A DNA stretch of 64,000 nucleotides from Candidatus Oxydemutatoraceae bacterium. GTDB taxonomy: Bacteria > Pseudomonadota > Gammaproteobacteria > Poriferisulfidales > Oxydemutatoraceae. The position numbers and the translations under genes are program-made. The DNA is taken from contig CBDCOZ010000003.1 in assembly GCA_965220085.1 (NCBI GenBank), forward strand, positions 782,979 to 846,978, read 5' to 3'. This document shows positions 54,819 through 55,875 of this stretch, one piece after another. Position 1 is the first letter of the stretch. Every line of letters starts with the position of its first letter. The notes beneath the pieces are model-generated. The model saw nothing but the letters and a program-made list of their open reading frames with translations. It did no database searches and was not told the origin of the DNA.

Positions 54819-55394
54819 ATGGCAAAGAGATATTCAAAAGTTTCCTACAAACGGGTGTTGGCACTGCTGGCGCTGTCCTTGCCGCTGTTGTATTTTGCCG
54901 CAGTGTCGGGGCGCATATCGTTGCCGGAGACCCCGTTCAGGGCGCCCGAGTTTACGCATAAGCAACCGGCGGAGTGGATCAATTCGGCGCCATTGACGGT
55001 TGCCGATCTGCGCGGCAGCGTCGTGTTGCTTGATTTCTGGACCTACGAATGCTGGAACTGCTACCGCTCGTTCCCTTGGTTGCGCGCGGTTGAGGAGCGC
55101 TATCAAAGCCGGGGGTTGCAAGTGATCGGGGTGCACACGCCCGAATTTGATCGCGAACGGATTCTGGAAAATGTGGCGGCGAAGGTCAAAGAGTTCAAAC
55201 TCAAGCATCCGGTCATGATCGATAATGACTTTTCTTACTGGCGCGCGATGAACAACCGCTACTGGCCGGCATTCTATATCATAGACAAGCAAGGCTTGGT
55301 GCGCGGTGTGTTTGTCGGCGAAACGCACGCCGGCGATAGGCGCGCCAAAAAGATAGAAGCCTTGCTTGAGAAACTCTTGGCCGAAGCCGCTTAA
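54819..55394 (+). CDS. thioredoxin-fold thiol:disulfide oxidoreductase (TlpA/ResA-like, CWNC active site)
   Basis: LLDFWTYECWNCYRSFPWL redoxin motif; N-terminal membrane anchor. Confidence 0.8.
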   Translation: MAKRYSKVSYKRVLALLALSLPLLYFAAVSGRISLPETPFRAPEFTHKQPAEWINSAPLTVADLRGSVVLLDFWTYECWNCYRSFPWLRAVEERYQSRGLQVIGVHTPEFDRERILENVAAKVKEFKLKHPVMIDNDFSYWRAMNNRYWPAFYIIDKQGLVRGVFVGETHAGDRRAKKIEALLEKLLAEAA

Positions 55395-55875
55395 CCGTTC
55401 GCTCAGCCGTCGGTTGCGGCAAAGCCGCATATCCGCCCGTCTTTGATCAGAACCGGCAGATCGTTGTCCAGCGTGTCAAATTGCTCCGCAAGTTGTTCCA
55501 GCGTTGCGCCTCCGGCGATAGGCGCGCCAAAAAGATAGAAGCCTTGCTTGAGAAACTCTTGGCCGAAGCCGCTTAACCGTTCGCTCAGCCGTCGGTTGCG
55601 GCAAAGCCGCATATCCGCCCGTCTTTGATCAGAACCGGCAGACCGTTGTCCAGCGTGTCAAATTGCTCCGCAAGTTGTTCCAGCGTTGCGCCTCCGGCGA
55701 TAGGCGCGCCAAAAAGATAGAAGCCTTGCTTGAGAAACTCTTGGCCGAAGCCGCTTAACCGTTCGCTCAGCCGTCGGTTGCGGTAAAACCGCATATCCGC
55801 CCGTCTTTGATCAGAACCGGCAGATCGTTGTCCAGCGTGTCAAATTGTTCCGCAAGTTGTTCCAGCGTTGCGCCC
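55331..55875. repeat. 182 bp tandem repeat x3 covering the convergent 3' ends (both stop codons) of the tlpA-like and DUF2063 genes
   Basis: copies begin at 55331, 55514 and 55696 with a few point differences; they create the chimeric ORFs 55403-55612 and 55585-55794. Confidence 0.85.

Follow-up and report, generated by a model that had tools for sequence, protein, structure and literature searches.

A redoxin gene on the plus strand and a DUF2063/HvfC_N gene on the minus strand converge in the window (the whole stretch of DNA analyzed here, 64,000 nucleotides), and across their ends runs a tandem array, array 1, which TRF placed at 55330-55874 with a period of 182 nt, 3.0 copies, 98% matches, 0% indels and a score of 1062. 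A repeat search resolved it into three head-to-tail copies (100, 99 and 98% identity), and the 182-nt blocks on either side matched the unit at background level (54/182 and 46/182 positions). Both searches bear out the central claim of the first-pass annotation, that a 182-nt segment across two convergent stop codons occurs as three tandem copies. Phased at 55330, each unit consists of 65 nt of redoxin tail, an 8-nt spacer and 109 nt of DUF2063 tail; the two-tail make-up had been described correctly, but the lengths given for the tails (63 nt and ~118 nt) had not. Pfam upheld the identities proposed for these two genes (AhpC-TSA/Redoxin and DUF2063) and for the Kdo kinase and Kdo transferase genes discussed below.

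Copy 1 opens with the final 65 nt of the redoxin gene, whose TAA lies at 55392-55394, and the redoxin C terminus is conserved in two relatives, L003 and L007. The DUF2063 gene is the final gene of a BufA(DUF2282)-MbnB(DUF692)-DUF2063 operon; its protein is 100% identical to P0001, which is encoded on a 2,046,636-bp contig, and among GTDB representatives, which do not include this species, the best match has 37% identity. At the novel junction between units there is one odd base, a T in place of the C that the right flank carries at 55875. No microhomology was detected at the unit ends in the window (7/20 matches), in L003 (10/20) or in L007, and since there is no repeat at its boundaries in any of the three, the sequence gives us no grounds for placing array 1 in the microhomology-mediated (short-direct-repeat) subtype of tandem duplication.

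Table 1. Features of the two arrays and the genes that they join (positions in the window)
Feature	Position	Strand	Content or basis
Redoxin / AhpC-TSA / thioredoxin-like (TlpA-like) gene	54819..55394	+	ORF; Pfam PF00578, PF08534, PF13905
Perfect 12-nt inverted repeat	55286..55368 (arms 55286-55297 and 55357-55368)		Brackets the left array boundary at 55330
Array 1 copy 1	55330..55511		Functional redoxin tail 55330-55394, 8-nt spacer, remnant DUF2063 tail 55403-55511 (-)
Array 1 copy 2	55512..55693		Remnant tails on both strands
Array 1 copy 3	55694..55875		Remnant redoxin tail 55694-55758, functional DUF2063 tail 55767-55875
Array 1 novel junction	55511..55512; repeated at 55693/55694		...GTTGCGCCT/CCGGCGATAGG... 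(GCGCCT/CCGGCG); k-mer across it, GTTGCGCCTCCGGCGATAGG
13-nt hairpin	55416..55428 (copy 1), 55598-55610 (copy 2), 55780-55792 (copy 3)		GCGGC-AAA-GCCGC in copies 1 and 2, GCGGT-AAA-ACCGC in copy 3
Two overlapping mechanical 69-aa ORFs	55403-55612, 55585-55794	-	ORF listing
DUF2063/HvfC_N gene	55767..56540	-	ORF; Pfam PF09836; copy 3 ends with its last 109 nt
kdkA (Kdo kinase)	57737..58573	+	ORF, Pfam; database-called version 250 aa, 57821-58573
Array 2 (sister array)	58511..59434		TRF: period 156, 5.9 copies, 96% matches
waaA (Kdo transferase)	59339..60637	-	ORF, Pfam; stop codon inside the last array 2 unit

The sister array and the single-copy relatives

The kdkA and waaA genes, which also converge, had been noted to show a similar arrangement at their ends, and TRF confirmed a real array there (array 2), with BLAST similarity reaching from 58505 to 59446. 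Its unit spans the 15-nt overlap of the two gene ends. The junctions between units are of two types in the order A-B-A-B-A, which gives a higher-order period of 312 nt and points to expansion by two-unit unequal exchange. A and B units have diverged by ~4%; the kdkA/waaA overlap segment is identical in all units, and the variable sites cluster around the unit junction, 6 of the 8 falling within ~47 nt.

We took advantage of L003 and L007, which are syntenic with the window and have the same gene order (amino acid identities of 66% for DUF2063 and 73% for kdkA in L003, and 66% for kdkA in L007). Both are single copy at the redoxin/DUF2063 and at the kdkA/waaA junctions, which makes a single copy the ancestral state at both. 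The relatives' redoxin/DUF2063 junctions are a 4-nt overlap and a 15-nt spacer and L003 has a 15-nt overlap at kdkA/waaA, all without an array; the 3' end of kdkA in L007 carries an expansion of its own, a perfect 14-nt repeat of 3.8 copies. A redoxin homologue in L011 (72% identity) lies in a different neighborhood and is uninformative on the junction.

For array 2, L003 also shows what may have seeded the duplication. The 12-mer GTCAAAACAGCT occurs there exactly twice, at 476-487 and 632-643, where none is expected by chance; the spacing of 156 nt equals the period of array 2, and in alignment both 12-mers coincide with its unit boundaries. The junction between array 2 units consists of the first 9 nt of the right repeat followed by the last 3 nt of the left one. 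A perfect 12-nt direct repeat at the boundaries is the signature expected of slippage between short direct repeats.

Polarity against L003 and L007 was also informative for the array 1 copies, which differ by transitions (C/T, G/A, C/T and T/C) and have diverged by 1.6%. At 55643 copy 2 has C and the others T, a D to G change in the remnant DUF2063 tail; at 55784 and 55788 copy 3 has T and A where copies 1 and 2 have C and G; at 55848 copy 3 has T and the others C; and copies 1, 2 and 3 end in T, T and C respectively (55875 in copy 3). It had been noted that the copies differ at a few positions, which is right, but the listing was partial: the first three of these sites were given, and 55848 and the last base were missed. 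Three shared sites and one private site give the genealogy ((c1,c2),c3), with copies 1 and 2 as sisters and copy 3 as the outgroup. By outgroup polarity, the sole change in the functional DUF2063 copy is synonymous (GGC>GGT), and the remnant copies have two replacements (T>A and D>G) and one synonymous change. This distribution fits relaxed constraint on dead tails, and real mutations rather than sequencing noise.

The outgroups have a C.A mismatch in the stem of the 13-nt hairpin, and each array 1 allele perfects the stem through a different single change. Changes that perfect a palindrome are diagnostic of quasipalindrome template-switch mutation (Lovett laboratory; PMC6357072), and both alleles resemble its products in turning the ancestral mismatch into a perfect pair. 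That mechanism covers base changes within the unit and not the duplication itself; selection for the hairpin is an alternative.

Origin of the arrays and competing explanations

We conclude that array 1 most likely arose as a harmless duplication by replication slippage and persisted since both genes remained intact. More broadly, we assign a probability of about 0.65 to the reading that both arrays are locus-specific, nonfunctional tandem segmental duplications, produced by template switching or slippage, enlarged by unequal exchange, and tolerated. In the first step, during replication, slippage or template switching of a nascent strand would have connected the right end of a ~150-180-nt segment to the left end of the same segment. 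In array 2 the event would have been a slip between the short direct repeat copies 156 nt apart in kdkA and waaA, and in array 1 a join without detectable homology and with one odd base; as the window, L003 and L007 all lack microhomology at the array 1 ends, the step is proposed there by analogy only. Unequal homologous exchange, as the genealogy of the copies suggests, would then have yielded three copies in array 1 and about six, in a 312-nt two-unit register, in array 2. As for the third step, the geometry of the sequence is such that the first copy would complete the plus-strand gene and the last copy the minus-strand gene, leaving promoter, ribosome-binding site and translational coupling untouched and merely lengthening the 3' sequence by dead tails, 364 nt of them in array 1 and 765 nt in array 2. 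Because each unit spans two convergent stop codons and no gene is broken, purifying selection does not remove the duplications; duplications of the same size within genes or operons would be lost.

Two observations sit less easily with this reading. Neutral tandem repeats would not be expected to diverge by 1.6% and ~4% without collapsing, except where recombination is low or mutation high. The clustering of array 2 substitutions at the unit junction is not predicted by plain neutral decay and counts against tolerated duplication, which is nonetheless the best explanation.

We were concerned with whether the position of the arrays reflects where duplications survive or where they arise. The window has 7 convergent, 6 divergent and ~40 co-directional gene boundaries, and both arrays made of two gene tails lie at convergent ones (hypergeometric p = 21/1378 = 0.015). 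Such a concentration is what would be seen if tight convergent junctions that lack terminators were mutational hot spots, at which converging transcription or head-on replication-transcription conflict causes stalling or breaks and hence duplications. The seven convergent junctions measure only -17 to +31 nt, too tight to leave room for terminators. GC skew is mostly positive on the plus strand, which would make the minus-strand partner head-on to replication, and no skew flip marking a replication terminus or skew switch lies within the window. The non-homologous junction of array 1, with its odd base, resembles some break or template-switch junctions. However, the other five convergent junctions are equally tight and have no array, the 12-nt direct repeat suffices for array 2, and other arrays of the window lie between co-directional genes. 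We therefore regard a hot spot as unlikely, although it would be compatible with the later steps of tolerated duplication, from which it differs in making the location a matter of origin and not of survival.

The first-pass annotation had gone further and proposed a genome-specific mechanism acting at convergent junctions. A mechanism dedicated to such junctions is not demonstrated: the 12-nt direct repeat accounts for array 2, and a 56-nt array at 19718-19951 lies between co-directional genes, flanked by the 10-nt direct repeat TGCGATAGCG. The convergent location is equally explained by tolerance, since both ORFs and all promoters and ribosome-binding sites are intact, and two of two arrays in the 64 kb examined is a small sample that cannot separate tolerance from mutational bias. 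The whole window looks prone to slippage and duplication; TRF returned six rows in 64 kb, arrays of 41, 49 and 56 nt among them, and there are poly-C tracts of 20-27 nt and a five-gene tandem paralog array. Loss of Exonuclease VII, which suppresses slippage, is not the cause, since the gene for its small subunit (xseB) is present at 23834-24088.

Alternatively, the arrays could have been selected as spacers: by setting apart convergent genes that overlap or abut, they would provide both with private 3' ends and leave untranslated room in which read-through polymerases could be halted (for example by Rho) ahead of antisense transcription of the neighbor. In the single-copy state the stop codons would be 8 nt apart at array 1 and the genes would overlap by 15 nt at array 2, and the arrays have persisted while their copies diverged by 1.6-4%, with no collapse. 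Nevertheless, the unit has no rut-like C>G composition on either strand, no terminator and no excess structure; the relatives do without an array at each of the overlaps and spacers given above, as do the five other tight junctions of the window; and with the overlap segment identical in all array 2 units, the private ends show no independent evolution. We consider selection for spacing improbable, and hold in similarly low regard the broader proposal that this lineage systematically builds and keeps gene-tail arrays at terminator-less convergent junctions, whether the cause is mutational or selective, with the arrays acting as spacers or insulators.

Assembly stutter, or a wrong copy number at a locus that is truly single copy, is very improbable. 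A Logan short-read contig from the same organism (L006, run ERR14375724) is 100% identical to window positions 55818-58608, and its two ends lie within the two arrays, where copy-specific variants create branch points in a k=31 graph; branch points were predicted at 55818 under the strict-unitig rule and at 58608 under the out-branch rule. This contig comes from another assembler and stops exactly where a multi-copy graph would branch, whereas a single-copy locus would have assembled through, as in L003; it thus agrees with the earlier statement that the array is not a simple assembly stutter. The copy differences, being transitions with sensible evolutionary polarity against the outgroups, and the A-B-A-B-A order of array 2 also argue against an artifact. 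In favor of one, the copy numbers of 3 and 6 are those of one assembly, as a single genome of this organism is on record and L006 breaks within the arrays and hence carries no copy number.

Tests for an encoded or mobile element

It had been suggested that the repeats might act as bidirectional terminators or as a source of sRNA, for which the results give no support. A site search found no terminator-like or promoter-like site within the unit; RNA folding gave no excess structure over shuffled controls (z-scores of +0.70, -0.12, -0.24 and +0.54); and there were no Rfam matches in the window. Each unit matched its own array alone in a BLAST search of the 64-kb window. In JGI metagenome contigs, the exact 27-mer across the two stop codons had no match, and a 21-mer common to the window and L003 had one, in L005, which is AT-rich, unrelated and matched by chance. 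Among the ~55 ORFs scanned in the window there was no reverse transcriptase, integrase or transposase.

Several candidates were rejected individually. A diversity-generating retroelement was set aside for lack of a reverse transcriptase domain and for copy differences that are not adenine-specific; att-site scars of an integrative element, for copies that are contiguous without cargo and for the absence of integrase and transposase from the window; and a dispersed repeat family (REP/BIME, MIRU, ERIC or Correia-like), for a unit found at its own locus only within the 64-kb window. The motifs GCGATAG and CGATAGGC are over-represented and strand-biased and occur where the 182-nt and 56-nt units begin, but most of their sites belong to coding sequence that is itself repeated (domain repeats and paralogous gene ends of the '...GPLR*' type) and to the arrays themselves; we rejected them as a recombination signal, the motif in array 1 being in-frame coding sequence (GGC GAT AGG). 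Taken with these rejections and null results, a functional RNA or DNA element of any of these kinds (terminator, sRNA source, REP/MIRU-like repeat, retroelement repeats or att scars) is hardly credible, even with a 5-bp G+C hairpin in every unit whose stem is perfect in both alleles.

The chimeric reading frames reported at array 1 do exist as ORFs, but nothing indicates that they are genes. Both start at an out-of-frame ATG, cross the redoxin tail in antisense and continue into remnant DUF2063 tail. Neither has a Pfam match, and the product of 55403-55612, the one ORF for which an exact look-up was made, is absent as a called gene from the gene collection. Exact look-ups of the redoxin, DUF2063 and waaA (410-aa form) products likewise gave no match. 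They are by-products of the 182-nt period (3n+2).

Known duplications and what the arrays mean

In the literature we found no direct precedent for tandem repeats spanning convergent gene ends. A close counterpart is tandem amplification in Escherichia coli, in which junctions have 4-15 bp of microhomology with occasional point changes beside them, and an initial non-homologous step is followed by expansion (Slack et al. 2006, PMC1428787). The arrays are similar to these amplifications (PMC1428787) in their head-to-tail copies, single novel junction with 0-15 bp of homology, junction-adjacent base changes and two-phase history, and array 2 fits through its 12-nt direct repeat. They differ in that the E. 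coli units are 7-32 kb, whereas those here are 156-182 bp and contain no complete gene, so no dosage benefit arises; in their fixation in a natural genome and an age that has let the copies diverge; and, for array 1, in the absence of microhomology.

As summarized in PMC10710844 (citing Collins 2005 and Frutos 2006), Ehrlichia ruminantium carries variable-copy tandem repeats in noncoding regions, and that account describes many locus-specific arrays in one small genome with ongoing expansion and contraction, which is similar to what we see. In the same account the Ehrlichia arrays lie in long noncoding spacers, the coding fraction of that genome being low, whereas ours consist of coding tails of convergent genes in a tightly packed region. 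The host here, a marine-type gammaproteobacterium, is unrelated to Ehrlichia. Ehrlichia repeat units are reportedly of the order of 150 bp. Mycobacterial MIRU/VNTR units, of tens to ~100 bp at gene boundaries, are said to carry the stop codon of the upstream gene and to leave the flanking ORFs intact at any copy number; they reportedly form one dispersed family at many loci between co-directional operon genes. Our arrays likewise leave the ORFs intact, but each locus has a unit of its own, placed between convergent genes.

Array 1 is thus a curiosity rather than an element of a new kind; it belongs to a known kind, the tandem segmental duplication. As we read it, the locus is a natural example of how chance short direct repeats seed tandem duplications, how these expand, and why they survive only where nothing breaks, a duplication across two convergent stop codons being placed where it does least harm in a compact genome. 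It also carries a warning for annotation and assembly, in that such arrays are exactly where short-read assemblies break, and they can lead gene callers to report chimeric ORFs. Enrichment at convergent junctions across the genome, if true, would bear on how conflicts between converging transcription and replication shape bacterial genome structure, and also on the uncoupling of overlapping convergent genes.

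Two arrays across convergent gene ends

The first-pass annotation had described a 182-nt triplication spanning two convergent stop codons, and this was borne out by a repeat search, by a tandem-repeat finder (TRF: 55330–55874, period 182, 3.0 copies, 98% matches, 0 indels) and by comparison with the flanks, where identity of the adjoining 182-nt blocks to the unit (54/182 and 46/182 positions) is no higher than background. Each unit of this array (array 1) consists of 65 nt from the end of the redoxin gene, TAA included, then an 8-nt spacer and 109 nt of the opposite-strand DUF2063 tail. 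The redoxin gene runs to its end in copy 1 (c1) and DUF2063 in copy 3 (c3); the rest is remnant. Copy 2 alone differs at 55643, and copy 3 is set apart from copies 1 and 2 at 55784, 55788, and 55848; the unit ends in T in copies 1 and 2 and in C in copy 3. The chimeric reading frames reported at this locus do exist, as two 69-aa minus-strand ORFs, but they are mechanical by-products of the 3n+2 period; a Pfam scan gave no family match for either, and the product of the ORF at 55403–55612 had no record among called genes. The kdkA/waaA junction is also repeated, as the annotation had said (array 2). Within its unit the two gene ends overlap by 15 nt, and two junction types alternate (A-B-A-B-A), giving a 312-nt higher-order register. 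Arrays 1 and 2 bracket a 3.1-kb block containing kdkA and a bufferin-type RiPP operon.

Coordinates of the arrays, neighboring genes, and other repeats in the window
Feature	Position	Strand	Details
Array 1, copies 1–3	55330–55511; 55512–55693; 55694–55875		repeat search
AhpC-TSA/Redoxin/thioredoxin-like gene	54819–55394	+	ORF and Pfam
Bufferin-type operon	55767–57718	-	
DUF2063/HvfC_N gene (HvfC partner)	55767–56540	-	last in DUF2282(BufA)-MbnB-DUF2063 operon; ORF and Pfam
MbnB/DUF692 enzyme gene	56537–57433	-	
DUF2282/BufA1 precursor gene	57434–57718	-	
kdkA	57737–58573	+	end inside array 2
Array 2	58511–59434		156-nt unit x 5.9; TRF
waaA	59339–60637	-	end inside array 2
49-nt x 2 array	3464–3560		inside 913-nt spacer after truB
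Poly-C tracts (20, 27, 22 nt)	4201–4220; 15325–15351; 51371–51392		
Five tandem intrinsic-terminator-like hairpins with T-runs	14549–14767		3' of ComEA-like HHH_3 gene
Five tandem paralogous genes	15340–19725		~885-bp unit, 78–92% identical; no Pfam family
Paralog ORFs	15419–16183; 16180–17064; 17061–17960; 17957–18838; 18835–19725		
56-nt x 4.2 array	19718–19951		99% identity; starts in last codons and stop of gene 18835–19725
xseB (Exonuclease VII small subunit)	23834–24088	-	between ispA and upstream spacer
Inserted repetitive-protein genes	50811–54818		~4 kb

The kdkA product is also encoded in the Logan short-read assembly of run ERR14375724, on a 2791-nt contig (L006) that equals window positions 55818–58608 with 0 mismatches, exactly the stretch between the arrays. 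Contig break points were predicted from a de Bruijn graph (k=31) of the window sequence. A strict unitig grown from 57000 ended on the left at 55818, its terminal 31-mer ending at the copy-3-specific T at 55848, and a path halting solely at ambiguous extensions ended on the right at 58608, beyond which the following base, unit position 99, is split evenly between C and T (three units each). Both ends of L006 are graph-predicted branch points, although the graph does not account for its crossing of one in-branch that the strict unitig would not pass; the reads therefore contain two or more non-identical copies of each unit, which supports both arrays as real and agrees with the earlier statement that array 1 is not an assembly stutter. 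Two other accounts of the contig ends were rejected: a single-copy locus would be assembled through, as in the syntenic relative L003, rather than broken in both arrays, and if the variant at 55848 were no more than a strain SNP, the break would fall at 55849 instead of 30 nt further along.

No close relative was found among GTDB representatives or JGI metagenomes; a large protein collection yielded two syntenic relatives, L003 (66% identical to the window in DUF2063 and 73% in kdkA) and L007, from a Tara metagenome (66% in kdkA). Both have the gene order amidase, redoxin (forward), DUF2063-MbnB-(BufA) (reverse), kdkA (forward), and waaA (reverse), with the L003 sequence stopping near the waaA start. 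The overlaps in L003 are 4 nt (TTAA) for redoxin/DUF2063 and 15 nt for kdkA/waaA; in L007, 15 nt separate the redoxin and DUF2063 stops. Because neither contig carries a large-period array, the comparison indicates that the ancestral state was single-copy and that the arrays were derived in the lineage of the window. A different tandem repeat, perfect and 14 nt x 3.8 (TTATGGAAGCGTGA; 7044–7096), lies in the kdkA 3' end of L007, where it shifts the frame and truncates kdkA before the ancestral waaA overlap; L008, a further Logan contig of independent origin, carries the L007 kdkA and ends within this repeat (959–988). The amidase-redoxin distance is ~90–290 nt in L003/L009 and L007; in the window, two poly-C-led repetitive-protein genes are inserted between the amiC-like amidase and redoxin genes.

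Formation and copy history

L003 (6973 nt) contains exactly two copies of the 12-mer GTCAAAACAGCT (476–487 and 632–643; 0 expected by chance), at a spacing of 156 nt, the period of array 2. When array 2 is aligned with L003, the two 12-mers fall on the left and right unit boundaries, and the internal junction joins nt 1–9 of the right repeat to nt 10–12 of the left. Short direct repeats so placed are the classical substrate of slipped misalignment or template switching. We propose that such an event between the 12-nt repeats would have produced the first duplication, which homologous unequal exchange would then have expanded; Escherichia coli amplifications likewise begin with duplication at 4–15-bp junction homologies and expand by homologous unequal exchange (PMC1428787). 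The 56-nt array, bordered by TGCGATAGCG, a 10-nt direct repeat, has the same direct-repeat signature and is a textbook microhomology duplication. The proposed origin leaves unexplained that A and B units are ~4% diverged, yet the array has not collapsed, and that six of the eight variable sites cluster within ~47 nt around the junction. Type B retains the ancestral TAT codon, and the functional kdkA copy has TAC.

The formation of array 1 is less clear. Since no microhomology is seen at its two ends, whether in the window (7/20), in L003 (10/20), or in L007, we infer by analogy that a nonhomologous template switch or join may have been followed by one unequal exchange, a step that the genealogy ((c1,c2),c3) supports; the persistence of 1.6% divergence among copies without collapse is not explained by this origin. 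The junction has a single odd base, T versus C in the right flank, and occasional 1-bp insertions or small changes next to junctions were also seen by Slack et al. (PMC1428787). A perfect 12-nt inverted repeat (55286–55297/55357–55368) straddles the left boundary.

With L003 and L007 as outgroups to polarize the differences, the functional DUF2063 tail (copy 3) carries only a synonymous change (GGC>GGT), and the dead tails have acquired Thr>Ala (ACC>GCC) and synonymous GAA>GAG, plus Asp>Gly in copy 2, as expected if the mutations are real and constraint on these tails is relaxed. A single 13-nt hairpin, GCGG[C/T]AAA[G/A]CCGC, was hit by two of the changes and is present as two alleles (55416–55428, 55598–55610, and 55780–55792). 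Its stem carries a C.A mismatch in L003 and L007, mended by C>T in copy 3 and by A>G in copies 1 and 2. Palindrome-perfecting changes are a hallmark of quasipalindrome template switching (PMC6357072), and the hairpin changes bear this signature, fitting a template-switch-prone replication context; selection for the hairpin itself could also have perfected it.

Probable tolerance at convergent junctions

A tandem duplication would harm a gene only when both its end points fall inside that gene. Across a co-directional boundary it would place junk in an operon and break translational coupling, across a divergent boundary it would double promoters and 5' fragments, and across two convergent stops it would alter 3' untranslated sequence and nothing more. 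Convergent junctions in the window measure -17 to +31 nt (20193–21107/21091–22944 overlap by 17 nt and tyrS/zapD by 4 nt, with the other convergent gaps in the region 20193–45823 at 17–31 nt), leaving no room for an intrinsic terminator, so any tolerated ~150-nt duplication must take in both gene tails. Gene boundaries in the window are convergent in seven cases, divergent in six, and co-directional in ~40, and both two-tail arrays sit at convergent ones (2/2; hypergeometric p = 0.015).

This location fits tolerance, and it would fit just as well a bias in mutation caused by converging transcription or by head-on replication conflicts (GC skew on the plus strand is mostly positive); 64 kb cannot separate the two. 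The dedicated mechanism at convergent junctions suggested in the first-pass annotation was not demonstrated, as array 2 is explained by its 12-nt direct repeat and the location equally by tolerance. A strong need for spacers between convergent genes is argued against by five other tight convergent junctions in the window that have no array and by relatives that live with overlapping gene ends.

We found no terminator- or promoter-like site and no rut-like C>G bias in the array unit, no excess folding over shuffles for either strand of both units (z -0.24 to +0.70), and no Rfam match within the window. Pfam scans of ~55 window ORFs returned ordinary chromosomal housekeeping genes (including infB, rbfA, truB, aroA, cmk, rpsA, dxs, ispA, xseB, tyrS, zapD, coaE, pilBCD-type, nadE, bamD, clpB, tsaE, and amiC) and no reverse transcriptase, integrase, or transposase. 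With xseB present, at least the small subunit of Exonuclease VII, a slippage-limiting exonuclease, is not lost.

A repeat-rich region

BLAST of the repeat units against the window revealed no dispersed family. The terminator-like hairpins show compensatory stem changes (GGCGGCGCC/GGCGCCGCC versus GGTGGCACC/GGTGCCGCC). In the region 3430–3770, the post-truB spacer contains six CGATAG / CGATAGGC motifs, every one of them in plus-strand orientation. Across the window, CGATAGGC is present 14 times versus 2.2 expected (13 on the plus strand), with repeated sequence supplying much of this. The five-gene paralog array is related to 4321–5760, 51346–53094, and 53099–54457, and at least two paralogs (53099–54457 and 18835–19725) end in ...RLRLFLEGPLR before the stop, with a related ...FLEGPLR in 4321–5760. 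Three paralogous loci, homologous in their upstream regions too, each have one of the poly-C tracts at the 5' end, 9–18 codons past an ATG. The frame of the 51346 ATG is open through its tract into a 582-aa ORF; that of the 4174 ATG does not stay open, and there the listed main ORF begins only at 4321. The tracts look like slipped-strand phase-variation switches, one ON and one OFF, for large repetitive secreted proteins, which have no Pfam match.

The best-supported reading is that ordinary slippage or template-switch duplication followed by unequal exchange, filtered by tolerance, gave rise to the arrays. They are a further example of an already known kind, in a part of this genome where tandem and homopolymeric repeats are unusually abundant.
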